DNA from: a virus
Taxonomy: Duplodnaviria > Heunggongvirae > Uroviricota > Caudoviricetes
Direction: 5' to 3' (one strand)
Virus record (IMG/VR): IMGVR_UViG_3300045988_005640
Length of the DNA stretch: 64,000 nt
The notes below the pieces were generated by a model. That model was not told where the DNA came from, did no database searches, and was given only the letters and a program-made list of their open reading frames with translations. The translations under genes and the position numbers were made by a program. Of the stretch, positions 39,814 through 63,827 are shown piece by piece (the first letter of the stretch is position 1; every line of letters starts with the position of its first letter).

Positions 39814-40860
39814 ATGGAGAAGTACACATTAACAAAACTTCCCGATTCAGTTACACATGTTTTTATTGACTCTGACAGTATTGCCTATAAAGGTGCTTGT
39901 GTAGTTGAGAAATCAAAATATAAATACGTCAATAAACTCACCGCAGAAGAATCTGAGCCATTTGATAATGCGAAAGATGCTGCAAGATGGTTAGCAGACC
40001 AGAGAATCCTTGTAGAAGAACTTGGCCTGACATTTGATGAAGATGAATGGGAAAGACAGACTTGGAAAGAAGCTAAGAGTGAAAAAGAAGCTATCATGGC
40101 TACTCAACAGGTGCTTCAGGAATGGCTTAAGGTTGTTGGTAAAGAGAGAACTTGGGTAGGCTATTTAACAGAGAAAGGTGTGCATAAACATAAAGACATT
40201 AAAGGTCTTGAGCACCAATATCAAGGTAACCGTAAAGATGCTGTCACACCAACACACTTAGTTGCTTGTCGTGAATACCTTCTGTCAAGACCAGAGTTCA
40301 AACTAATTCTTGATGGATTTGAAGCTGACTCTATCGTAATTGCTAAAGCTGAAAAGATGGGTAAAAAGGCTGCCTTAATGAGTATTGATAAAGACCTTCG
40401 ACAAGCTGAAGGTACTTACTGCATTGATATGACCTATGAAAAATCACCTTTAATTTTTATTGCTGATAACAACGTTGGTGAAATTTGGGATTGCCCAATA
40501 AAATCAACACCAAAAGCTAAGAAGACAGTTGGGGTAGGTTTTAAATTTCTTTGTTATCAAGCTGTGGCTGGTGATAATGCAGATAACTATTTTGGTTTAA
40601 AGGGCGTTGGTAAGGTTGCTGTAATGAAAGCCCTTGAAGGTAAAACTACTTACAAAGAGTGTCTTGATGCAATTTATGAGCTTTATGCTAAGAAAGAGTC
40701 ATACACTTATGTCTCGTGGGATGGTCAAACAATTACCAGAACACCTTTAGAGTTAATGCAGCAACACTTTTTCTTAGCTTATCAGGAAAGAAATAAGAAA
40801 GATGATTTTACTTTTGATAAGTATGGGTGGACACCAAATGTTAACTCAACAAACTCTTAA
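39814..40860 (+). CDS. 5-prime to 3-prime exonuclease / flap endonuclease (FEN family)
   Basis: H3TH-like segment AGDNADNYFGLKGVGKVAVMKAL; N-terminal acidic cluster FIDSDSIAYKG; 348 aa. Confidence 0.55.
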   Translation: MEKYTLTKLPDSVTHVFIDSDSIAYKGACVVEKSKYKYVNKLTAEESEPFDNAKDAARWLADQRILVEELGLTFDEDEWERQTWKEAKSEKEAIMATQQVLQEWLKVVGKERTWVGYLTEKGVHKHKDIKGLEHQYQGNRKDAVTPTHLVACREYLLSRPEFKLILDGFEADSIVIAKAEKMGKKAALMSIDKDLRQAEGTYCIDMTYEKSPLIFIADNNVGEIWDCPIKSTPKAKKTVGVGFKFLCYQAVAGDNADNYFGLKGVGKVAVMKALEGKTTYKECLDAIYELYAKKESYTYVSWDGQTITRTPLELMQQHFFLAYQERNKKDDFTFDKYGWTPNVNSTNS

Positions 40861-41329
40861 AGAGTACCTACATTATGACCCCGAAACAGGGGTCTTTACT
40901 TGGATTAAGAAATCTGCTAGACACACAAAAATTGGCTCTGTTGCAGGTACAAACTTAAGAGGGTACACCAGAATTTATTTGTTTGGTAAGGGCTATTATG
41001 CACATACCCTAGCCGTTCTGTATATGGATGGATACCTACCTGAGTGTGTTGACCATAAAAATCATGTAACACTAGACAATCGCTGGGTAAATCTTAGGGC
41101 ATGTACGTTATCAGAGAACCAATGTAATAGGTTGCTCAATAAGAACAATAAATCAGGTGTTAAAGGTGTGTACTACAAAAAACAGTATGGTAAGTGGTCT
41201 ACACAGATAACTTTTAAGAAGAGGGTCTACTTCTTCGGCAACTATGACACTATTGATGAAGCAGCAGAGGTTGTAAATAGGGAACGTCAACGTTTACACA
41301 AAGAGTTTGCTAATAAAGGTGATGAATGA
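40838..41329 (+). CDS. HNH homing endonuclease with AP2-like DNA-binding domain
   Basis: HNH_3-type motif VDHKNHVTLDNRWVNLRACTLSENQCN followed by AP2-like SGVKGVYYKKQYGKWSTQITF; ATG at 40838 preferred (ORF track 40802). Confidence 0.6.
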   Translation: MLTQQTLKEYLHYDPETGVFTWIKKSARHTKIGSVAGTNLRGYTRIYLFGKGYYAHTLAVLYMDGYLPECVDHKNHVTLDNRWVNLRACTLSENQCNRLLNKNNKSGVKGVYYKKQYGKWSTQITFKKRVYFFGNYDTIDEAAEVVNRERQRLHKEFANKGDE

Positions 41330-41826
41330 GAAAAATAAAAGGTTTTGGCAATTGCCCTGAATATGGACATTGGGTTTCACTATGTGGTGAAGTTGACCCA
41401 GCAAAGCACTTTGGTTTTGTCTACCTAGTGTACTGCAAAAAGACTGGACAGTACTATTTGGGTAAGAAACAGCTTAACAGTGTGACAAAAAGAAAAGTTG
41501 CTGGGAAGACTCGGAAGAAGGTAGTCACTAAGGAGAGTGATTGGATGACTTACGAAACCTCTTCTGAGTATATTAAAAAAGATATTGAAAGCTTTGGAAA
41601 AGAATCTTTTGATTTTTACATTATTCAAACCTACTACACAAAAGGTGGTCTAGTCTATGGTGAAGCAAACCTTCAACATAAATTCGATGTAATGACAAAA
41701 AGGATTGACTCGAAGCTCAGGCTCTTCTACAATGCCAATATTGCAGCAATTAAGTTTATTACTAAAGAAACTTATGAAGATGCTGAAAAAAGAATCCATA
41801 AGGTAATGAAAGCAAATTATGCTTGA
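41326..41826 (+). CDS. GIY-YIG homing endonuclease
   Basis: N-terminal FGFVYLVYCKKTGQYYLGKK (GIY...YIG-type motif); ATGA overlap with upstream HNH gene. Confidence 0.5.
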   Translation: MRKIKGFGNCPEYGHWVSLCGEVDPAKHFGFVYLVYCKKTGQYYLGKKQLNSVTKRKVAGKTRKKVVTKESDWMTYETSSEYIKKDIESFGKESFDFYIIQTYYTKGGLVYGEANLQHKFDVMTKRIDSKLRLFYNANIAAIKFITKETYEDAEKRIHKVMKANYA

Positions 41827-41832
41827 TAACTA

Positions 41833-42096
41833 TTGAGAGAGAATAAAATGTTTAACAAAAGCAAAGCTGTGAGTCATGTAGCAAAAGTTGACAGCAAGAT
41901 TGAAGAACTTGAGCGCATTCTTGCAAATGCTAGAGAGTCAATAATTAAAGAAGTTGAAGCTGTTGAATCTCAAATGCAACACCTAATGCTTAAACGTCAA
42001 GAGCTACGTGAGCATCTAGAATATATCGAAACACGAGAGCTAAAGGTTAACAGATATTTTAAGGAGCCAAAATGTTTAACTCAAGAGAATCAGTAA
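41833..42096 (+). CDS. Hypothetical coiled-coil protein
   Basis: 87-aa ORF. Confidence 0.3.
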   Translation: MRENKMFNKSKAVSHVAKVDSKIEELERILANARESIIKEVEAVESQMQHLMLKRQELREHLEYIETRELKVNRYFKEPKCLTQENQ

Positions 42097-42827
42097 AAAA
42101 CTGGAACCTTCGTTGTGGAAACACTCAAAAGCAACCTTACAGTAATGAGTATTGGGAATCTTTAAAATCTCAATCTCTGTGTATGCTTGAAGAAGCAAAA
42201 GAGCTTGTAAAAGCAATTGAAGAGAAAGACCCCATTGAGACACTGGATGCTCAGGCAGATTTACAATATGTTCTTGACGGTTTGATTTACCTGTCACAAC
42301 ATGACCATAACGGTGCTATGGAAGCTGTTTGCCATAATAATGACCTGAAGTACACAGATGACTATGAAGAAGCTTTAAAACGTCTTGCAGACATTGAAAA
42401 GCGTACTGGTCAAGAGTGTATTATTCGAATGTCAGTGGTTGATGGTAAAGAGTGGTATGCGATTGTCCGTGCAGCCGATGGGAAGATTATGAAGCAATCA
42501 AATCTCCCTAAAGTACAGCTTGGTGAATACATTGTAGAGCTTGAAAGCCAAGAACTTTTTGTGGTAGTATCTGAGACATGCGTTATCTGCAAAGGTATTG
42601 TAGGTAGCTTAAAGGATTTGGGTGTAGATGGTTTTGTAGAAGTTAATCCAATTACCTCTAAAGCAGATAAAGACTTCTGTAAAGAGAATGGACTATGGAT
42701 TGCAGATATTGTCTACTATGATGGTGAGCAGTTCCATGTAACCTCATACCCGAAACTGAATTATGATGCTAATAACCTGAAGTGCTGGTTAAAAGGGGTT
42801 GGTTATAATGGATTCACAGAACATTAA
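42072..42827 (+). CDS. Hypothetical protein with possible MazG-like all-alpha NTP pyrophosphatase segment
   Basis: Segment LEEAKELVKAIEE...DAQADLQYVLDGLIYL resembles EExxE...D metal-binding helix pattern of MazG-like enzymes; weak. Confidence 0.3.
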   Translation: MFNSRESVKNWNLRCGNTQKQPYSNEYWESLKSQSLCMLEEAKELVKAIEEKDPIETLDAQADLQYVLDGLIYLSQHDHNGAMEAVCHNNDLKYTDDYEEALKRLADIEKRTGQECIIRMSVVDGKEWYAIVRAADGKIMKQSNLPKVQLGEYIVELESQELFVVVSETCVICKGIVGSLKDLGVDGFVEVNPITSKADKDFCKENGLWIADIVYYDGEQFHVTSYPKLNYDANNLKCWLKGVGYNGFTEH

Positions 42828-51660: not shown

Positions 51661-51981
51661 ATGAGCAAAGTTTATAACACTCGTAAATTACAGATTTTCG
51701 TACTGTGCCAGTTTATGGCTAAAGAATACAACTTCTACTATTGTGGTACAGGTTTTATTAGCGATGATGATGGCTCATACCTCCCATTCAAAGAAGCTGT
51801 AAAACTCTTTAATGAAGAGAAAAGCTCTAAGAAAGATATTGAAAAGGTTAAGCTAACCTACAGCAAGAAAGATAAGAAGATTATCTGCCTAGATAACTTT
51901 GTGAAAGTTACTGGAGAAGCAAAAGAGTTTATGGATGAGAGTGATATTTCATTCACAAGCATCTTGAAAGTAGCTCAGTAA
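51661..51981 (+). CDS. Hypothetical protein
   Basis: 106-aa ORF. Confidence 0.3.
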   Translation: MSKVYNTRKLQIFVLCQFMAKEYNFYYCGTGFISDDDGSYLPFKEAVKLFNEEKSSKKDIEKVKLTYSKKDKKIICLDNFVKVTGEAKEFMDESDISFTSILKVAQ

Positions 51982-51992
51982 ACAGATACTAT

Positions 51993-52020
51993 AAGGGGAC
52001 TGTAAAGGTTCCCTTTTTAT
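51993..52020 (+). terminator. Putative intrinsic terminator
   Basis: Stem aaggggac/ggttccctt with 7-nt loop followed by ttttt. Confidence 0.5.
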
Positions 52021-52032
52021 TTTGGAGGTAAA

Positions 52033-52548
52033 ATGTATCTGTCAAACCTGAAACGTTCGGTTGCAATGTCAGTTCTAAGACTCAGCTTTGATGAGCGTCA
52101 AGAGTTTATAGACTCCCACAAATATGACCCTTCAAATTCTAATCACATGGTTCTTTGGAATCGTGATAACTTCCGTGAAAGAGCACTTGTCCGTTATTAC
52201 CCACACTACACAATAGATAACCTGTATGAATGGTGTGTTGTGAAGAACACCATTGCAACACTGAACAATCTTTGCAGGTATACGGGTAAGCAAACATTTA
52301 CATTAGGTCATCACAAACCTGTTACAAAAGGTGGTGAACATCACTGTGCAAACTGGTTTATCCAAACTAAAACTGATAACCAGAAGCAAGGAGATAGCCT
52401 CCTAAGTATCCCTAAGATGACCTATGAAGAGCAAGAGAAATATATCAAAAATAATATGCCAGATGTGCTTGACAACAACTATACAGATTTGGCAATATCT
52501 CTCCTGTTGAAGTTCGAGACAGTTTATAGGGCAACTTATAATGGCTAA
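52033..52548 (+). CDS. Putative HNH endonuclease
   Basis: Segment LGHHKPVTKGGEHHCANW...DNQKQG resembles HNH beta-beta-alpha-metal core; 171 aa. Confidence 0.4.
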   Translation: MYLSNLKRSVAMSVLRLSFDERQEFIDSHKYDPSNSNHMVLWNRDNFRERALVRYYPHYTIDNLYEWCVVKNTIATLNNLCRYTGKQTFTLGHHKPVTKGGEHHCANWFIQTKTDNQKQGDSLLSIPKMTYEEQEKYIKNNMPDVLDNNYTDLAISLLLKFETVYRATYNG

Positions 52549-52819
52549 AGAAAAGTGGGAGATTTTACCATTAGTCAGTGAAGGAGGTAATGGTTGTGAA
52601 ATGTACATGATACGTGGTCATGTTCCAGAGCCAATTGCACTTGAGATGGTAAACAACTTTACAGATGGTTCTTACAAAGACTTAGGCGAACCAACTGTCA
52701 AGCAACAATGGGTTAAACCTGTACCAGACAGCACAGGTAACTGTAGTGTACTTTATCACGTTGTAGACCCTGCAAAATGCAAATCTGCAATGGCAGTAAC
52801 AAACGTAACTTTTGATTGA
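52541..52819 (+). CDS. Hypothetical protein
   Basis: 92-aa ORF. Confidence 0.3.
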   Translation: MAKEKWEILPLVSEGGNGCEMYMIRGHVPEPIALEMVNNFTDGSYKDLGEPTVKQQWVKPVPDSTGNCSVLYHVVDPAKCKSAMAVTNVTFD

Positions 52820-52830
52820 GAGAGAAAACT

Positions 52831-53712
52831 ATGAAAACATCTATCCGTGTTACAGTTCATTCACCAACTAAAGGAACTCATGAAGAAGAGTTTAACATCA
52901 TCCAATTTCCTTCTGGTGAGATTGGTGGACACTTTTCTCCAGAGTTTGTTGATTTCACTGCTTATGCAGCATCATCCATCAACAATGTGATTATGATTGT
53001 AAAAGGTTATGATAAGGATACATTGTTTGCTGTGGCACTTGCTAAAGAAGCAATTGATGATTTAATTCCTCATGATTATGCTTTAAAGACTGTCATCTTT
53101 TACTACTTACCAAATGCACGTTATGACCGTCACATGTTTAAAGGCGACGCAGCAGCTTTAAAGGTTTTTGCTAAACAGGTAAATGCAATGGGATTTGGTG
53201 CAGTCTGTGCAGTTGACCCTCACAGTTACGTTCCAGATAACCTGTTTAACTGCTTCCAGAGTATTCCTCAAAAGGAGATTGCAGTTCACTACGCAAATGA
53301 CCCACTGATTGATTACTTAGTAGCCCCAGATGCAGGTGCTGCTAAGAAGATTGCAGAGACTGCTAAAGAGGTGGATAAACCATACATCACAATGTCTAAG
53401 GTGCGTAACCTTAAGACTGGTGAAATTACTGGTATGCGAATCCTTGACGATGTTGATTTGACAGATAAAACTGTCATGATTCTGGATGATATTTGTGATG
53501 GAGGTCGAACCTTCATAGAAGCAGCCAAACATCTTCGTGAAGCAGGTGCAAAACGTGTGGAACTCTATGTAACTCATGGTATTTTCTCTAAAGATGTTGA
53601 AAACTTGCTTGACAATGGTATTGACCATATCTACACTACAAACTCTTTAGGGGAAGCTAAAGACCGTGGCTTAACACATTATAGCCAAGTTACTGTAGCA
53701 AACCTTGATTAA
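52831..53712 (+). CDS. Ribose-phosphate pyrophosphokinase-like protein (Prs-like; possible ADP-ribose pyrophosphokinase)
   Basis: PRPP-binding loop VMILDDICDGGRT and VAPDAGAAKKIAE block; ATG at 52831 with GAGAGAG RBS preferred over ORF-track TTG 52816. Confidence 0.6.
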   Translation: MKTSIRVTVHSPTKGTHEEEFNIIQFPSGEIGGHFSPEFVDFTAYAASSINNVIMIVKGYDKDTLFAVALAKEAIDDLIPHDYALKTVIFYYLPNARYDRHMFKGDAAALKVFAKQVNAMGFGAVCAVDPHSYVPDNLFNCFQSIPQKEIAVHYANDPLIDYLVAPDAGAAKKIAETAKEVDKPYITMSKVRNLKTGEITGMRILDDVDLTDKTVMILDDICDGGRTFIEAAKHLREAGAKRVELYVTHGIFSKDVENLLDNGIDHIYTTNSLGEAKDRGLTHYSQVTVANLD

Positions 53713-53757
53713 AACTTTATAGGGGCTTCCAAGCCCCATTTTGAGAGAGATTAAAAG

Positions 53758-55539
53758 ATGACTAAATCACTTTATGCAGTACCAGCAGGTTTAAATGCAG
53801 ATGCTTACAAATCTGGTCATGTTTACCAGTATCCTAGCGCAACAGAGTACTTGATGTTCAATCTGACACCACGTAGCGACAAATGGTTTAACAGCCCCTT
53901 AGCAATTGACGGTGTAGTGGCTTTTGGTATTCAACGTTTTGTTAAAGATTACTTGATAGACCACTGGAATGCCACTTTCTTTGAACGTGATAAAAAAGAA
54001 GCCATTGATGAAATCTTAGAAGTCATGAATGGTGTTCTGGGTAAAGATGCTATCGGTCGAGAGCATTGGGAAGCACTTCACGACTTAGGTTATCTACCAG
54101 TTGAAGTATACGCTGTAGAAGAAGGCACAGTTGTTCCAATGCGTGTCCCGATGATTGTCTTTCAGAACACTGTTTCAGGTTTTCATTGGGTAGCAGGTTA
54201 TCTGGAAGATGCTTTCTCTGCTGAAATTTGGAAGGCTTGTACCATTGCAACTATTGCATTGCATTACAAACGCATCTGTAAGAAGTGGGCTGACCTTACT
54301 TGTGACAATGACTTACATTTACCTTATCAGTGCCATGATTTTGCTATGCGTGGTATGTCCGGCTTTACTGATGACGCATTTAACGCTGTAGGTCACTTAA
54401 CCAGCTTTAAAGGGACTGATAGCTTCCCTGCTGTATACACGGCTAAACGAATCTATGGACAGTCCTACCCAATCTCTGATATTGGTAGTTCTGTACCAGC
54501 CACTGAGCACTCTGTAATGTGTGCAAACATTGCTTGGGAAGGTGGTAATGAGTTGATTGAAGAAGAAAGACGCTTTAAAGGTGAGTTACAAACCTTCCGT
54601 CGTTTCTTAACAGAAACTTACCCAACAGGTATTGCAAGCATTGTTTCAGATACTTATAACTTCTGGAGAACTGTGTCAGAAATCTTACCAGCACTTCGTA
54701 AAGAAATTATGGAACGTGATGGCAAACTGGTAATTCGCCCTGACTCTGGAGACCCTGTACATATTGTCACAGGTTATAAAGCAATCCACTTAGAATGTGC
54801 TAAGAAGGCTTATTACGAGCACCTAAGCAAGCTGGAAGCCAGTGACACAATGTTGAATGCTGTTCTGAACATGAAGCTTGAGAACATCAACTATGGTATT
54901 GCTGGATGGCTACTGTCAGAAGGCTACGAGATGGTTGTTGACAGAGAAGACTTTGAAGTTGCTGATACAGTGATGTTGAAAAATGCTTATATGGTTGGTT
55001 CTGCAAACGTTGTAACACGTCCTGTAGCTGAGATTGATGGAGCTATTAAGACACTGTACAACATCTTTGGGGGAACTATTAACTCTAAAGGCTTTAAAGT
55101 ACTGGATGAGCATATTGGACTTATTTATGGCGACTCTATCACGTTGGAACGTGCAAATGAAATACTGAAGCGTTTGTATGAAATGGGTTTTGCAAGCTCT
55201 AACGTAGTGTTTGGTGTAGGTTCTTACACTTACCAGTACATGACTCGTGACACCTTTGCATTTGCTGTCAAAGCAACCCTTGCAAGCATTGGTGGTAAAG
55301 AGATTATGCTTGCAAAAGACCCTAAAACAGATAGTGGTGTTAAGAAGTCTGCTTTTGGTGGTGTAGCACCTATGTGGGATGGTGAAAATCTGAAAGCTGT
55401 AGATGGCTATGGGTTCCAGAGCTTTGCAGATGCACTTGAACATCCAGCTTGTGCTTTACGTCTAGTCTTTAGTGACTCTGAGCAGTTCGGCTACACAACT
55501 CTTGGTGATATTCGAAATAATATTGACAAGCAGCTTTAA
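53758..55539 (+). CDS. nadV: Nicotinamide phosphoribosyltransferase-like protein (NadV/NAMPT family)
   Basis: 593 aa; N-terminal LYAVPAGLNADAYKSGHVYQYP characteristic of NAMPT-family start; adjacent to Prs-like gene. Confidence 0.7.
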   Translation: MTKSLYAVPAGLNADAYKSGHVYQYPSATEYLMFNLTPRSDKWFNSPLAIDGVVAFGIQRFVKDYLIDHWNATFFERDKKEAIDEILEVMNGVLGKDAIGREHWEALHDLGYLPVEVYAVEEGTVVPMRVPMIVFQNTVSGFHWVAGYLEDAFSAEIWKACTIATIALHYKRICKKWADLTCDNDLHLPYQCHDFAMRGMSGFTDDAFNAVGHLTSFKGTDSFPAVYTAKRIYGQSYPISDIGSSVPATEHSVMCANIAWEGGNELIEEERRFKGELQTFRRFLTETYPTGIASIVSDTYNFWRTVSEILPALRKEIMERDGKLVIRPDSGDPVHIVTGYKAIHLECAKKAYYEHLSKLEASDTMLNAVLNMKLENINYGIAGWLLSEGYEMVVDREDFEVADTVMLKNAYMVGSANVVTRPVAEIDGAIKTLYNIFGGTINSKGFKVLDEHIGLIYGDSITLERANEILKRLYEMGFASSNVVFGVGSYTYQYMTRDTFAFAVKATLASIGGKEIMLAKDPKTDSGVKKSAFGGVAPMWDGENLKAVDGYGFQSFADALEHPACALRLVFSDSEQFGYTTLGDIRNNIDKQL

Positions 55540-55550
55540 AAGTATATGAT
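55523..55550 (+). promoter_or_regulatory. Candidate promoter TTGACA-N16-TATGAT overlapping nadV stop codon
   Basis: -35 at 55523-55528, -10 at 55545-55550; predicted start site falls in the 5-prime arm of the downstream terminator hairpin. Confidence 0.3.
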
Positions 55551-55552
55551 AA

Positions 55553-55578
55553 GAGGCTCCTACGGGAGCCTTTTTAAT
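55553..55578 (+). terminator. Intrinsic terminator
   Basis: gaggctcc-tacg-ggagcctt followed by ttttt. Confidence 0.6.
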
Positions 55579-55592
55579 TTCTGGAGAAGATT

Positions 55593-55928
55593 ATGAAAAT
55601 CAAAGAGATGAACATCAACATCGTCTTAGAGGAACGTTGGGAGAACATCAAGAAACCTGAAAATGGTCATAAGTTCCTTAACAAAATTTTAGTAGCAGCT
55701 AAAGAAGAACTGACTGGTAAGATTGCAGCAGCAATCACAATAAAGGTCTGTGTAAAAGGTCTTCCAGACAATCACCAATTTGCACTTGACGAGTTTAAAG
55801 AAAGCTTCTACAATCCAAATAAACAGATGCTTGAAAGTAACTTTGCAGTATCTACAAGTATCGTCCATGACAGAAGCTTTATCCTTTACAAGAATATGAG
55901 AGGTGAGTCATGCAAGCATATTGGATAG
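55593..55928 (+). CDS. Hypothetical protein
   Basis: 111-aa ORF. Confidence 0.3.
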   Translation: MKIKEMNINIVLEERWENIKKPENGHKFLNKILVAAKEELTGKIAAAITIKVCVKGLPDNHQFALDEFKESFYNPNKQMLESNFAVSTSIVHDRSFILYKNMRGESCKHIG

Positions 55929-56114: not shown

Positions 56115-58481
56115 ATGCGCATGGTAAACGACCACGCAGAAGTGATTAAGAGTTCAACTTCTTTAGAGACGTCTCAAGCACAGATTACAATGACACCTGA
56201 AATGTTCAGCCTTTTGAGTTCTGGTGTATATACCTTTAAAGAAAGGGCAGTGATTCGTGAACTGTCATGTAACGCAGTAGATGCTCAGAAAGAGGCTGGA
56301 AAAGAGAACATCCCGTTCCATGTGCATTTGCCTACTCGTTTTGAGCCTTACTTTGAAGTTCGTGATTTTGGAACTGGATTAACTCATGATAAAGTTATGA
56401 GTTTGTACCTAAACTATGGGGCTTCTACGAAGAATGACTCTAATGACTACATTGGTGCAATGGGTATCGGCTCAAAATCACCATTTGCAATTGCTCAGTC
56501 ATTCACAGTGTCTAGCTATGTTGACGGTGTTGTTAATAAGTACTCTGTTTATCTTGAGAATGGTATCCCTCAAGTAACTAAACTGACCACTAACCCAACA
56601 AAAGAACCTAATGGTTTAGCTGTACGTGTGGCAGTTGCTGACCACCGTATTTCAAAGTTCTTTGAAGAGGCTGGTAATGTATACTCATACTTTGCTGTAA
56701 AACCAGAGAGTAATGTGGAGTATAATGATATATTAGCAGATATGGATGTGATTGCTCGTGAAGAAGGTGTCTATGATGCCATGACTCATAAGCATAGCTG
56801 GCGTTCAAGCAGCAATAGAACAGAGTTTAACGTGGTTATGGGTAATATTGCCTACCCAGTTAATATGGAGGCATTACTTGGTGATGATTTCTTCAAAGTA
56901 TTACCAGAATTTTTCCGCAGGAGCATAGACCTTGTAAACATCTACATGCCTATTGGTTCAGTTGCTATTGCAGCTTCTCGTGAAGCATTGCAGATGAATG
57001 ACACGACAAAAAATGTTATCATCGAGGCTACTAAAAAGATAACTGAAGCAATTACAAAGGATGTTATCAAGAAAGTTAATAGTCAACCTACACTCATGGA
57101 TGCTGCACAGGCTTATGCTGAGTTACGCTTAAACTCACGAGAGATGTTTAATGTTGTGTGTCCAAAGCTAGAGTGGGGAGGTGTTAAGCTTGATTCTCTG
57201 GAAGAAGAATTACTAAACATTCGTCGTGGAATTATCTACGCAGAAGACGGCTCAGTCATTTATGAACGTGACGGCAAAGGCAATATTAAGGTTGATAGGA
57301 ACGGGAACAATATCCCTAAAGTAGATTATCTTTATGACCCAGTTGCTTATGTCAAATTCAACTCTTTAGAGAGTAAGATTCGTGCAACATCGCTTTCCTA
57401 CACTCAAGAGGCAAGCATGTTCAATATCTTTGGCGCAATGCGTAAAAGCCAAATTGAACAGTTTTTGTTTGTTATAAATGACCGTCGCAATAAAAACGGT
57501 ACTGAGAAGACTGTAGGACGCAATCAAATCTTGCGTGGTGCATGTCGAGACTATGCCAGTGAGTCTAGTCTGTTTCACAGATACAATGGTATTGTATTTG
57601 TATTCTCGACTGAAAAAGAGCTAGATGACTTAGTCAATCTACACAAACTTGATAAAAGCTTGTTAAAGATTGTGAAGATGTCTGAGAAGGAACACCATTA
57701 TCAGCGTAAAGAAGCTGTAAGAGGTGTTGTAAAACTCTGGAAAGCTGTTCCAGCAGAAGGTGTAGCTTCCTATAAAGAGGTTTCAGAGGACTTTGATACA
57801 ATTGAAGAGCCTCAGCTTTACATTAAGGCAGTTGGTGATACAGTTGATGGTAGATGTTTTTGCTCATCTCCAGAAGATGTAGCTAAGTCAGTTGCTAATG
57901 TTACAGGTAAGACAGTCTATGTTTTCCGAAAAGCAAATTGGAAAAAGATACCAGAAGATTGGATTGAAGTAGATGAGAAACTCTTGAACGACAGCTTAAC
58001 TGATGTTCACTGGATTAACCATAACAGATATATGACGCGTATCTATATGAATGGTGTCCTTGACCTTACAAGCAGTTGGATTATTGCCAGAAACTTTACG
58101 TTTAATAACAGGAAGATTTCTCGCGGGTATTGTTATTCAAGGGATACTATTAAGACAATCTTCTTAGAAGGGAATGAAGATGCTGTTGAGGCAATGTTTG
58201 GTAAGATTCAGTATGTGGCTGCACCGTTTGCATACACTTACACTATCAGTGTTCTTCAGTATTTGAAGTCATGCCTTGATAATGACACAAAACTGTACAA
58301 AAAGATTAAGAAAGCAGGTGACCGCATGGTTATCAAGCTGACAAACTATCTTTCAAAAAGAAAACAAGAAAACTTCTTGCTTTCACACTTAGATTGGAAT
58401 AAAGTATCACCTATCGAAGTGAGTAAGTTTTTAGGCTTTGATGTGAAGTGTGTTCCAGAAGGGACTACAATTTACGATTAA
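56115..58481 (+). CDS. rIIA: rIIA-like protein with GHKL-type ATPase domain
   Basis: N-terminal Bergerat-fold boxes: RELSCNAVDA (N box), VRDFGTGL (G1), GAMGIGSKS (G2); 788 aa; immediately upstream of rIIB homolog. Confidence 0.65.
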   Translation: MRMVNDHAEVIKSSTSLETSQAQITMTPEMFSLLSSGVYTFKERAVIRELSCNAVDAQKEAGKENIPFHVHLPTRFEPYFEVRDFGTGLTHDKVMSLYLNYGASTKNDSNDYIGAMGIGSKSPFAIAQSFTVSSYVDGVVNKYSVYLENGIPQVTKLTTNPTKEPNGLAVRVAVADHRISKFFEEAGNVYSYFAVKPESNVEYNDILADMDVIAREEGVYDAMTHKHSWRSSSNRTEFNVVMGNIAYPVNMEALLGDDFFKVLPEFFRRSIDLVNIYMPIGSVAIAASREALQMNDTTKNVIIEATKKITEAITKDVIKKVNSQPTLMDAAQAYAELRLNSREMFNVVCPKLEWGGVKLDSLEEELLNIRRGIIYAEDGSVIYERDGKGNIKVDRNGNNIPKVDYLYDPVAYVKFNSLESKIRATSLSYTQEASMFNIFGAMRKSQIEQFLFVINDRRNKNGTEKTVGRNQILRGACRDYASESSLFHRYNGIVFVFSTEKELDDLVNLHKLDKSLLKIVKMSEKEHHYQRKEAVRGVVKLWKAVPAEGVASYKEVSEDFDTIEEPQLYIKAVGDTVDGRCFCSSPEDVAKSVANVTGKTVYVFRKANWKKIPEDWIEVDEKLLNDSLTDVHWINHNRYMTRIYMNGVLDLTSSWIIARNFTFNNRKISRGYCYSRDTIKTIFLEGNEDAVEAMFGKIQYVAAPFAYTYTISVLQYLKSCLDNDTKLYKKIKKAGDRMVIKLTNYLSKRKQENFLLSHLDWNKVSPIEVSKFLGFDVKCVPEGTTIYD

Positions 58482-58560: not shown

Positions 58561-59670
58561 ATGACTACTAAAACTAAAGCACAGATTGACGCAGAAATTT
58601 ACAAACTGGTTAAAGAAGGTAAGCTGACCAAAACAGCTATTGCACAGAAATTTAACACTTCAACCCGTTCAGTTGGTCGTGCTGTAGAGCGTCATGAAGC
58701 AACCTTAAAAGGGAAGAAGAAGGTGACTTCTACACCAGCTACGAAGACTTTGAAGCAAGTTGCTAAGACTTTTAAAAAGAAAGCTGGCAAACCAGTTGAA
58801 AAGGTCGTTAAAGACGCTGTACAGAAAGCTCCAGTAAATAAACTGCACGAAGCTATGCAGAAAGATGACAAGATTGAGTACATGATTACTGGTGATTCTG
58901 TAATTATGACTTATGGTTCAGAATCTGAAATTGTTGAGTCTACTCATCCGAACTATCAAGAGATTGTAGTTCATGTTGTGAAAGGTGAGTTCAAGAAAGC
59001 ATTTGAACTGATGAACATTCGTAAGTCTATCGAAAACTTCACTCAGGGTGCTATCACAATCAAAGGCGACAAGCTATTCTACGGTGCTGTTGAGATGCGT
59101 TCTACTCTGGTTGACCGTATTCTTCACATGATGAAAACTGGCGATAAAGGTTTTGAACGACTTGTAATGTTCTTCGAAAAACTGATGGAAAACCCATCTA
59201 AAGATTCTGTAGAACAACTTTGGGGATTTGTATCTCACCTTGATGTTGAAATTGATGAAGAAGGCTACATCATTGGTTGGAAGAAAGTCTCTACTCGTGA
59301 AGGCAAGCTGGTTGACTCTCACACCTACAAAGTGCCTAATGATTTGGGTAACATTGTAGAAATGCCACGTTGGATGGTTGATAATAACCGTAACGTAACT
59401 TGCTCTCAAGGTCTTCATGTTGGTGCTTGGGATTATGTTCGTTGCTTCTCAGGTGATACAATCCTGAAGGTTCGCGTACATCCACGAGATGTTGTATCTG
59501 TTCCAACTGATTACAACGATATGAAGATGCGTTCCTCTCGTTATGAAGTTGCAGCAATCGTTGATAATCAACGTAAAGTGCTGGAAGCATGGGACGGTAA
59601 GACTGAAGCTTTGCATGTCATCGTTGGCACTGCTGGTGAACTCATCTCTCAACGTAAACGTGAAATCTAA
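58561..59670 (+). CDS. rIIB: rIIB-like protein
   Basis: 369 aa; blocks VRVHPRDVVSVPTDYNDMKMRSSRYEV and CSQGLHV closely resemble T4 rIIB C-terminal region as recalled (not searched). Confidence 0.75.
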   Translation: MTTKTKAQIDAEIYKLVKEGKLTKTAIAQKFNTSTRSVGRAVERHEATLKGKKKVTSTPATKTLKQVAKTFKKKAGKPVEKVVKDAVQKAPVNKLHEAMQKDDKIEYMITGDSVIMTYGSESEIVESTHPNYQEIVVHVVKGEFKKAFELMNIRKSIENFTQGAITIKGDKLFYGAVEMRSTLVDRILHMMKTGDKGFERLVMFFEKLMENPSKDSVEQLWGFVSHLDVEIDEEGYIIGWKKVSTREGKLVDSHTYKVPNDLGNIVEMPRWMVDNNRNVTCSQGLHVGAWDYVRCFSGDTILKVRVHPRDVVSVPTDYNDMKMRSSRYEVAAIVDNQRKVLEAWDGKTEALHVIVGTAGELISQRKREI

Positions 59671-63041: not shown

Positions 63042-63827
63042 ATGGGTATTGTAAAAATCATCAATGGTGATATCTTTGCTGCATTTGATAAAGGTAAGTT
63101 TGACATCATTGGTCATGGTTGTAACTGCATGAACCTAATGGGCGCAGGTATCGCTGACAAGATTTCTAAACTTTACCCAAAAGCATATGAGACCGATACA
63201 GAAGTTTATCTATATGCAGGTGGTATAGGACACAAACCCTGTGAGAATTTACTAGGTAATTTCTCTGTAGCACGCTTAAAACAAGGTCGTATAGCTAACC
63301 TTTACACTCAGCTTAAGACTGGTAAAGATGCCCGATACAGTGCTTTAGAGTCATCTTTGAAACAGCTTAACAGATACTGTGAAGTTAATCAGTTGAAGAA
63401 AGTTGGTTTACCTATGATTGGTGCAGGTATCGGTGGACTTGACCCTCAAGCCATCACAGTTATCATCAATCAGGTGATGAAGAGTGTAGATGTTTATCTG
63501 TATGTCTATGAAGGCGAGATGTACCACAAGTTACGCTCAGGTTGGAAGAACTACTGTGAACCAGAATACTTTGCAGGTGTAGCAGTGTTCACAGATAACG
63601 CAGTTACCCTCTTCAGACGAAGAAAAGGTAAGATACATCAAAGTAACCCTCCGGTTGAAAAGATGTCTCTAAGTAACGCTCTAGTTACCCACCTGTCAAA
63701 GAGCAATCACAGAATTGCTGTAACATTTGGTAGTGATGCAGAAGCTTATATCTATGCAAGAACTGATGAGGATATCGAGGCAATCTTCTCTTCACCAGAA
63801 GTTACCTTCTTAGACGCAAAGAACTAA
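63042..63827 (+). CDS. Macro-domain-like protein (ADP-ribose binding/processing fold)
   Basis: INGDIF...DIIGHGCNCMNLMGAGIADKI aligns by eye with macro-domain GDIT...VNAAN..GGGV..AI block; later VGLPMIGAGIGGLDPQ aligns with AFPxISTGxYGxP block; extra about 100-aa C-terminal region. Confidence 0.5.
   Translation: MGIVKIINGDIFAAFDKGKFDIIGHGCNCMNLMGAGIADKISKLYPKAYETDTEVYLYAGGIGHKPCENLLGNFSVARLKQGRIANLYTQLKTGKDARYSALESSLKQLNRYCEVNQLKKVGLPMIGAGIGGLDPQAITVIINQVMKSVDVYLYVYEGEMYHKLRSGWKNYCEPEYFAGVAVFTDNAVTLFRRRKGKIHQSNPPVEKMSLSNALVTHLSKSNHRIAVTFGSDAEAYIYARTDEDIEAIFSSPEVTFLDAKN

Follow-up and report, generated by a model that had tools for sequence, protein, structure and literature searches.

A Felixounavirus gene pair orthologous to the NARP1 counter-defence operon of phage Bas63

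Introduction

NAD+ reconstitution pathway 1 (NARP1) was discovered in genes 79-80 of Escherichia phage JohannRWettstein (Bas63, MZ501086), where it counters NAD+-depleting bacterial immunity (Osterman et al. 2024, bioRxiv 10.1101/2024.02.11.579819). Here we examine an adjacent pair of genes, adps and namat, in a 64,000-nucleotide stretch of phage DNA (IMG/VR record IMGVR_UViG_3300045988_005640; the whole stretch is called the window), and compare them with this and other described systems. Bas63 without genes 79-80 becomes sensitive to SIR2-HerA and shows deeper NAD+ depletion, an effect of the operon that is independent of host pncC or nadR. ADP-ribose (ADPR) pyrophosphate (ADPR-PP) appeared in infected cells that had the operon and the defence system together, and not otherwise, and NARP1 did not make excess NAD+ unless the defence system supplied ADPR. 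The same study reported that NARP1 also defeats type I Thoeris, DSR1, DSR2 and SEFIR, that 97% of Adps-clade genes have a Namat neighbour, and that no phage carries both NARP1 and the alternative pathway NARP2 (10.1101/2024.02.11.579819). In PhageMaP, an independent knockout screen of Bas63, loss of g79 or g80 lowered plating on Sir2-HerA by 10^4-10^6, and both genes also weakly countered retron Ec86 (10- to 1000-fold) and hhe (10.1101/2024.10.10.617714).

The biochemistry was run on the homologues from SpbetaL1, in which the gp79 homologue converted ADPR to ADPR-PP and gave no product in a control assay for phosphoribosyl pyrophosphate (PRPP) synthetase (10.1101/2024.02.11.579819). Formation of ADPR-PP from ADPR and ATP has been shown for the Adps of SpbetaL1 and of Vibrio phage ICP1, and in vivo for Bas63 (10.1101/2024.02.11.579819; PMC13586617), while preference for ADPR-PP over PRPP and direct NAD+ formation have been shown for SpbetaL1 Namat (10.1101/2024.02.11.579819; PMC12774641). 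Two structural papers define the adenine clamp of Namat (PMC12774641) and the ICP1 Adps structure with the signatures of the Adps family (PMC13586617). In the mechanism published for the family, a host NADase effector of the SIR2, TIR or SEFIR type splits NAD+ into ADP-ribose and nicotinamide during infection. The PRPS-like Adps then moves the beta,gamma-pyrophosphate of ATP onto the 1'' hydroxyl of ADP-ribose, and the Nampt-like Namat, whose aromatic clamp recognises the adenine of ADPR-PP, couples this product with nicotinamide to give NAD+ directly. Such a route does not require an adenylyltransferase acting on nicotinamide mononucleotide (NMN).

Results

The gene pair is orthologous to Bas63 genes 79 and 80

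The original prediction, made from the letters of the window, had placed adjacent Prs-like and NadV-like genes at 52831-55539. This description agrees with the open reading frames (ORFs), their coordinates, the quoted peptides and the Pfam and PHROG matches. The Prs-like ORF extends on the + strand from the ATG at 52831 to the stop at 53712 (293 aa) and the NadV-like ORF from 53758 to 55539 on the same strand (593 aa); the peptide VMILDDICDGGRT is residues 215-227 of the former and LYAVPAGLNADAYKSGHVYQYP residues 5-26 of the latter. Pfam assigned Pribosyltran and Pribosyl_synth to the Prs-like protein and NAPRTase (6.8e-35) and NAMPT_N to the NadV-like protein, and the corresponding PHROGs were 619 (4.6e-97) and 448 (3.6e-202). 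The Pfam, PHROG and NCBIfam scores of both genes were far above chance and fell in the expected superfamilies. An in-frame TTG at 52816 is listed mechanically 5' of the Prs-like ATG; nevertheless, the ATG at 52831 is the likely start, because a Shine-Dalgarno-like run, GAGAGAGA, lies 5 nt before it and Bas63 is annotated with the identical 293-aa product length and start.

Megablast showed that this region of the window has 99.9-100% DNA identity to LF82P5 and 99.7% to KhF2, both Felixounavirus records, and that it matches about 250 Felix-O1-like phages, whose hosts are Escherichia, Salmonella, Shigella and Citrobacter. Furthermore, the window is collinear with Bas63 from the terminase gene onward. 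By these DNA matches, the window is a Felixounavirus genome, and the system in it is already known: it is the same-genus orthologue of the operon in which NARP1 was discovered.

The Prs-like protein carries the signatures of Adps

The original prediction had called the N-terminus of the Prs-like protein atypical, which proved right. The Pfam scan gave no match in the N-terminal half, the best stretches starting at aa 160 and 196, and the NCBIfam Prs equivalog and narrow-subfamily models scored 42-104 bits, where their cut-offs are 296-536; the broad TIGR01251 model alone was passed (123.5, cut-off 113). Judged by these thresholds, by the missing match to a Prs-type N-terminal domain and by the lack of the regulatory C-terminus, the window protein is not of the housekeeping PRPP synthetase (Prs) type. 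A PDB sequence search with it returned canonical PRPS only and no Adps chain.

The protein was then aligned with Bas63 gp79, the structurally characterised ICP1 Adps (from GenBank) and E. coli Prs. It was identical to Bas63 gp79 at 230 of 293 residues, with the differences mostly in the first ~180 residues and ~95% identity (107/113) in the C-terminal 113. To the assayed ICP1 Adps it showed 37% identity (116 bits), compared with 29% (61 bits) to E. coli Prs. Residues R97, H131, D167, K190, D219, D220, C222 and D223 of the window protein are conserved with ICP1 Adps; seven of these (all except C222) align to Arg87, His121, Asp161, Lys185, Asp212, Asp213 and Asp216, which are important in the ICP1 enzyme (PMC13586617), so the PRPS-like catalytic core is present. 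A remodelled donor (PP) loop is common to Adps homologues (ICP1 Cys215-Ser220, DDICDGAAS; PMC13586617), and the window loop, DDICDGGRT, is the same as that of Bas63 and of the Adps type, while E. coli Prs has DDMIDTGGT. Loss of the C-terminal PRPS alpha11-alpha12 module is another signature of the family (PMC13586617). This module is missing here as well: the Prs model matches end at 296/316 (NF002320) and 290/309 (TIGR01251), and a 19-column gap opens against E. coli Prs at this place. Finally, namat starts 45 nt past the adps stop on the same strand, giving the Adps its Namat neighbour.

The NadV-like protein carries the adenine clamp of Namat

A Namat is recognised by a selectivity-clamp helix (SCH) of the form GS-X-phi-X-phi-X-phi-TRD, with aromatics at motif positions 3 and 7, and by a selectivity-clamp loop (SCL) that supplies a third adenine-stacking residue, either Arg at position 3 or Lys/Tyr followed by a stacking residue (PMC12774641). 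The window SCH, GSYTYQYMTRD, follows this rule, as does that of SpbetaL1 (GSFTYQYNTRD); the NMN-forming HdNadV has GAQTYQRNTRD and Xcc Nampt has GGALLQKVDRD. From the motif, Tyr490 and Tyr494 would stack on the adenine of ADPR-PP or NAD+. The window SCL contains Lys42-Trp43, the same as in Bas63 Namat, in which this position is reported as the source of adenine stacking and serves as the Lys-type example (PMC12774641).

All NAD+-contacting residues of SpbetaL1 Namat map in the alignment to identical or conservative residues of the window protein, namely D15, Y17, F195, R198, D221, A248, H251, R327, D329, G458 and D459, together with G488, S489, Y490, Y494, T496, R497 and D498. The core correspondences (window to SpbetaL1) are D15 to D13, Y17 to Y15, F195 to F189, R198 to R192, D221 to D215, A248 to A242, H251 to H245, R327 to R306, D329 to D308, G458 to G360, D459 to D361, G488 to G390, S489 to S391 and R497 to R399. 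The Nampt-like catalytic core, with its phospho-histidine and its nicotinamide and ribose-phosphate contacts, is therefore present in the window Namat. The best PDB sequence match was SpbetaL1 Namat (9w5w/9w5x, 5e-128). An AlphaFold2 model built with 35 homologues had a predicted local distance difference test (pLDDT) score of 93.4, and its best Foldseek match in the PDB was again 9w5x/9w5w (E 7e-54, target template-modelling (TM) score 0.94), with HdNadV and mammalian NAMPT ranking lower. The comparison of both proteins with canonical and ADPR-using families, which had been proposed as a check, thus turned out in favour of the latter: Namat structures are the best fold match, and the Adps lies nearer to ICP1 Adps than to E. 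coli Prs. The earlier opinion that sequence alone cannot separate the ADPR route from ordinary salvage is out of date, since the two can now be told apart by the clamp motif, by the Adps signatures and by direct orthology.

The NadV-like protein had also been described as about 100 aa longer than usual, and this length was offered as an argument for the ADPR route. The length itself is real: the 491-aa SpbetaL1 Namat has no counterpart of ~77 aa (351-427) and ~15 aa (259-273), and the main segment, which follows the RPDSGDP strand, comes to ~88 aa (aa ~340-427). The argument drawn from it was rejected. Because SpbetaL1 and ICP1 Namat both lack the insert, it is neither a marker of ADPR-PP use nor needed for Namat chemistry. 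In other homologues the same site holds inserts of varied length and unrelated sequence, which makes this loop an insertion hotspot, and ~495-aa homologues, including chromosomal Klebsiella and Cronobacter forms, have no insert there. Whether modelled within the protein or by itself, the segment was predicted with high confidence to form a small alpha/beta module; a fold search with it gave no significant match, and we found no reference to it in the text of the Namat structure paper (PMC12774641).

Two annotations of Namat homologues were noted in passing. ICP1 Namat (MW794185, locus L003 3853-5172) stands in its record as a 'hypothetical protein' of 439 aa. Its first residue corresponds to residue 56 of the window Namat; the annotated start probably lies too far downstream. 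Chromosomal homologues of ~496 aa in Erwinia, Klebsiella, Cronobacter and Kosakonia carry the clamp motif GSFTYQYNTRD or GSYTYQYNTRD and are annotated as nicotinate phosphoribosyltransferase, which is consistent with the report of bacterial NARP1.

Two diverged Adps N-terminal alleles circulate in Felixounavirus

Just 5' of the adps start codon, the DNA of the window and that of Bas63 are 100% identical; over codons 1-100 the identity drops to 55-72%, and it then climbs gradually back to >90% past about codon 190 (mosaic 52813-53412). Over the first ~100 codons, the proportion of synonymous differences between the alleles (pS) is 0.80, which is saturated, and that of nonsynonymous differences (pN) is 0.26. 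Such saturation points to an old divergence that entered by recombination. Between the window and VpaE1, which share the window-type allele, the ratio of nonsynonymous to synonymous substitution rates (dN/dS) was 0.10, 0.03 and 0.06 for the three thirds of adps, and values of ~0.03-0.10 indicate purifying selection. Of the two, the window type is found more often, in 155 phage records at >=90% identity compared with 91 in the 60-80% class that includes the Bas63 type. Two deeply diverged Adps N-terminal alleles therefore circulate in Felixounavirus, recombining exactly at the start codon, each under purifying selection.

Operon layout, signals and neighbouring genes

The coordinates of the operon and its features are given in Table 1. 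Four + strand genes, whose ends overlap or nearly abut, lie between two terminator-like hairpins: the gp77 homologue, the 92-aa gene, adps and namat. The 92-aa gene, for which Pfam gave no match, overlaps the preceding gene by 8 nt and ends 11 nt 5' of the adps ATG. From this layout, the pair is probably co-transcribed with the two upstream genes. The original prediction had the pair flanked by a promoter-like element and a terminator. The terminator is present at 55551-55574. The promoter stands only in part: no promoter-like site was found between 52543 and 52830, so a promoter directly 5' of adps was rejected, and the nearest + strand sites are those at 52514-52542 and 51964-51992.

Table 1 Features of the adps-namat operon and its surroundings in the window
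Feature	Position	Strand	Remark
Weak promoter-like site, abutting the next hairpin on its 5' side	51964-51992	+	
Terminator-like hairpin, 5' boundary of the four-gene unit	51993..52015	+	terminator annotated in AYO145A
Upstream gene, 171 aa, Bas63 gp77 homologue	52033..52548	+	89% identical to bas63_0077; PHROG 3500
Promoter-like site	52514-52542	+	
Upstream gene, 92 aa	52541..52819	+	99% identical to bas63_0078; PHROG 4726
adps, predicted ADP-ribose pyrophosphate synthetase (PRPS-like), 293 aa	52831..53712	+	78% identical to Bas63 gp79
Adps catalytic Lys190 codon	53398-53400	+	
Adps donor (PP) loop DDICDGGRTF, aa 219-228	53485-53514	+	
adps-namat spacer, 45 nt; small G+C hairpin and Namat ribosome-binding site GAGAGAGA	53713..53757	+	
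namat, predicted nicotinamide ADP-ribose transferase (Nampt-like), 593 aa	53758..55539	+	585/593 identical to Bas63 gp80
Namat SCL, aa 38-49, PRSDKWFNSPLA	53869..53904	+	Bas63-identical over aa 1-366
Namat catalytic His251 codon	54508-54510	+	
Namat insert subdomain, aa ~340-427, small alpha/beta module after the RPDSGDP strand	54775..55038	+	lineage-specific
Namat SCH motif GSYTYQYMTRD, aa 488-498	55219..55251	+	consensus GS-X-phi-X-phi-X-phi-TRD
Strong promoter-like site TTGACA-16-TATGAT (11 of 12), overlapping the Namat stop	55523-55550	+	equivalent promoter annotated in AYO145A
Intrinsic terminator-like hairpin and T-run closing the operon	55551..55574	+	10-bp stem, dG -17.2, z -3.1

The strong promoter-like site that overlaps the Namat stop would drive the genes after namat. 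A sigma-70-like promoter that abuts a terminator-like hairpin on its 3' side occurs twice, at 51964-52015 and 55523-55574, and from its sequence this arrangement looks like a compact terminator/promoter cassette: incoming upstream transcripts would stop at the hairpin, and those started at the promoter would begin inside the hairpin and read on. Within the adps-namat spacer, the hairpin at 53722-53737 (GGGGCTTCCAAGCCCC, followed by ATTTTG; fold dG -12.8, z -2.2) occupies a site whose equivalent is annotated as a rho-independent terminator in AYO145A. The same spacer holds a 492-nt HNH homing endonuclease gene in VpaE1 (locus L007 1806-2297) and ST11 (locus L008 1461-1952), and this site is empty in the window. 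In ST11, the annotation divides namat into two pieces, and adps is truncated; the PHROG half-families 16547 and 15800 may have arisen from split annotations of this kind.

Among the neighbours, gp77 of Bas63 reportedly counters retron Ec67 and is there classed as GIY-YIG (PhageMaP, 10.1101/2024.10.10.617714). The product of its window homologue had no GIY-YIG match, only a weak PHROG HNH match and an HNH-like GHHKPVTKGGEHHCANW motif. Homologues of rIIA and rIIB lie just downstream of the operon, at 56115-58481 and 58561-59670, and their Bas63 orthologues (g84, g85) are reported as counters to qatABCD (PhageMaP, 10.1101/2024.10.10.617714). Given these reports on the Bas63 orthologues, the 52-60 kb region looks like a counter-defence cluster.

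Accessory genes and other ORFs of the window

The Pfam scan covered 26 ORFs, that is, 17 non-structural ORFs of >=140 aa and nine operon neighbours. As the original prediction had stated, no NMN adenylyltransferase (Nmnat) was recognised: there was none among these 26 ORFs, which did not take in every small ORF, and none is annotated anywhere in the complete collinear Bas63 genome. NARP2 is marked by an Nmnat in the genome and no Adps; here an Adps is present and the 26 scanned ORFs include no Nmnat. No Adpp, a Poa1p-like Macro-domain protein whose gene in NARP1-AP lies within two genes on either side, was matched in the four upstream or three downstream genes, and no RyR domain (PF02026), the mark of RyDEP-extended NARP1, was found in the operon neighbours at E up to 1.

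The only Macro-domain protein found is the 261-aa product of the ORF at 63042-63827, 7.5 kb from the operon, which is called 'putative phosphatase' in relatives. Its best matches were the DarG antitoxin and TARG1/OARD1, the N-terminal 160 aa being DarG/TARG1-like; the match to Poa1p covered 40 aa only (E ~0.01-0.02). A tblastn search showed homology of the product to a T-even macro gene that neighbours vs (T4 Tk.4) and has been reported as the anti-DarTG2 factor AdfM. The protein is present in ~2850 phage records including T-even phages, and only ~258 match >=80% of its length, so its ~100-aa C-terminal part, in which Pfam matched nothing, appears to be confined to close relatives. These similarities make it probable that the protein acts against DarT and that its gene serves counter-defence in its own right, not as an accessory of NARP1. 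Its role as an unlinked Adpp ('NARP1-AP in trans') was rejected as the leading explanation, given the DarG/TARG1-like domain, the Tk.4 homology and the 40-aa extent of the Poa1p match; that it feeds ADPR into NARP1 is an unlikely variant, weaker than the lineage-specific functions considered in the Discussion.

Three further ORFs were noted elsewhere in the window. The ORF at 40802-41329 encodes an HNH_3 and AP2-domain endonuclease and lies mostly in a 415-bp segment (40907-41321) that is absent from Bas63; it is followed by a SegE-like GIY-YIG endonuclease ORF at 41326-41826. Both are probably mobile homing endonuclease genes. The ORF at 42072-42827 (251 aa) carries a MazG-like PRA-PH (nucleotide pyrophosphohydrolase) domain.

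Discussion

Overall, these results indicate that the gene pair is the NARP1 counter-defence operon of a Felix-O1-like phage and functions as such, with a probability of about 0.93. The present analysis establishes that the genes are intact, orthologous and under purifying selection, with conserved residues for catalysis and specificity, and it establishes their fold and operon layout. By analogy with the orthologues studied in the literature, the pair would be expected to form ADPR-PP, to restore NAD+ and to permit escape from SIR2-HerA, type I Thoeris, DSR1, DSR2 and SEFIR. The idea of the original prediction, an ADPR pyrophosphokinase plus a nicotinamide ADPR transferase that rebuild NAD+, is supported by orthology to Bas63 (99%/78%) and by the family signatures, and is not new.

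Several points weigh against this assignment. The window Adps differs from the tested Bas63 allele at 63/293 residues, concentrated in the N-terminal domain, and it is this difference that leaves the remaining doubt; the window allele presumably shares the activity of the tested one. Phe18 and Phe92, which hold the adenine in ICP1 Adps, align to T16 and M102, with Phe103 adjacent, in an N-terminal alignment that is unreliable; the Arg that contacts the ADPR adenine is conserved (ICP1 Arg87, window R97). The evidence for the window enzymes themselves is at the level of sequence and model, and the activities were assayed in orthologues. In addition, Namat keeps some PRPP-to-NMN activity in vitro, so a minor contribution to salvage is possible (PMC12774641).

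The last point bears on the current database annotation, according to which the pair is an ordinary salvage module: a phage Prs would supply PRPP, NadV/Nampt would make NMN, and host NadR or PncC-dependent routes would lead to NAD+. The Pfam, PHROG and NCBIfam names (ribose-phosphate pyrophosphokinase and nicotin(amide/ate) phosphoribosyltransferase) and nearly all GenBank records speak for it, and NMN formation by Namat in vitro is about half that of human NAMPT (PMC12774641). We consider it very unlikely, because the SpbetaL1 gp79 homologue makes ADPR-PP and gives no PRPP-synthetase product (10.1101/2024.02.11.579819), the window proteins carry the ADPR-PP clamp motif and the Adps-type loops, and the Prs-like protein falls below the Prs equivalog and narrow-subfamily cut-offs. 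An arrangement of the NARP2 type, in which the NMN that Nampt makes from PRPP would be adenylated by a phage Nmnat from another part of the genome, draws on the NadV-like fold, which is common to KVP40-type Nampt, and on the ~21 kb of genome beyond the window. We give it next to no credence: the NadV-like gene adjoins an Adps, while Osterman et al. found no phage with both pathways; the SCH motif is of the Namat and not the Nampt type; and no Nmnat domain was seen in the scanned window ORFs or annotated in the complete Bas63 genome.

It has also to be considered whether the enzymes mainly maintain the adenine-nucleotide and NAD pools in general, for example against retron Ec86 or hhe, and are not specifically directed at NADases. 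The weak effects of Bas63 g79 and g80 on these two systems (10.1101/2024.10.10.617714) fit such a role. On the other hand, the effect on Sir2-HerA is the largest by far, and NARP1 makes no excess NAD+ unless a defence supplies ADPR, which renders a mainly general role extremely improbable; this reading extends NARP1 rather than replacing it. Beyond the known NARP1, the window adds two minor points, the orphan-fold insert of Namat and the old recombinant N-terminal allele of Adps. It is unlikely that either gives NARP1 an undescribed function specific to Ounavirinae; if it were so, these features could have to do with regulation, with passing the labile ADPR-PP from one enzyme to the other, or with evading host factors by which NARP1 is sensed or inhibited.

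The findings in the window leave the current understanding of the NARP1 pathway unchanged. NARP1 is an unusual counter-defence because it repairs immune damage rather than inhibiting one immune protein, and for this reason a single operon defeats many NAD-depleting systems. The practical value of the assignment lies in correct annotation, as about 250 Felix-O1-like phage records still say Prs and NadV, and some Felix-O1-like phages are in use as typing or therapy candidates. Hosts that carry SIR2-HerA, type I Thoeris or DSR1/DSR2 should allow plating of a phage with this operon. Because the operon has no Adpp, continued sensitivity is predicted to aRES-type defence, which yields ADPR-1''-phosphate.

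Comparison with known systems

The closest described system, Bas63 NARP1 (bas63_0079/0080), belongs to the same genus and has the same position and four-gene order (gp77-gp78-adps-namat), identical gene lengths, the same Namat insert and the same clamp residues as the window, with Namat 99% and Adps 78% identical. It differs in the first ~100 codons of adps, which are the other, much diverged allele, and in an extra 345-nt gene, bas63_0081, right after namat (Bas63 55510-55857; locus L002 6488-6832) that the window (55592-55595) does not have. An extra gene of ~345 nt after namat was also seen in fjerdesal and typing phage 1.

The SpbetaL1 Adps/Namat pair shares the operon order, the Namat catalytic and adenine-clamp residues and the fold (TM-score 0.94); its 491-aa Namat lacks the ~88-aa insert and the ~15-aa insert at 259-273, and has Arg40 in the clamp loop where the window has Lys-Trp. 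ICP1 Adps, known from crystal and cryo-EM structures (PMC13586617), resembles the window protein in the catalytic Lys, the Asp-Asp pair, the DDICDG loop and the absence of the alpha11-12 helices, at 37% identity, whereas its N-terminal domain can barely be aligned and its Phe18 and Phe92 are unmatched at the aligned positions. In ICP1 it was the Adps that was assayed, not the Namat homologue.

The extended forms of the pathway share the two core enzymes with the window, whose operon and neighbours lack the additional components, that is, the Macro-domain phosphatase of NARP1-AP (Adps-Adpp-Namat, Vibrio phage Gary) and the RyR-domain glycosidase of RyDEP-containing NARP1 (mycobacteriophage DyoEdafos). 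The canonical enzymes, E. coli Prs on one side and human NAMPT, Xanthomonas Nampt and H. ducreyi NadV on the other, share folds and core phosphoribosyl-transfer chemistry with the window pair. In contrast, E. coli Prs has 29% identity (61 bits) to the window Prs-like protein, which is without the regulatory C-terminus, and Nampt has Ala/Gly and Lys/Arg where the window Namat has its aromatic clamp residues.

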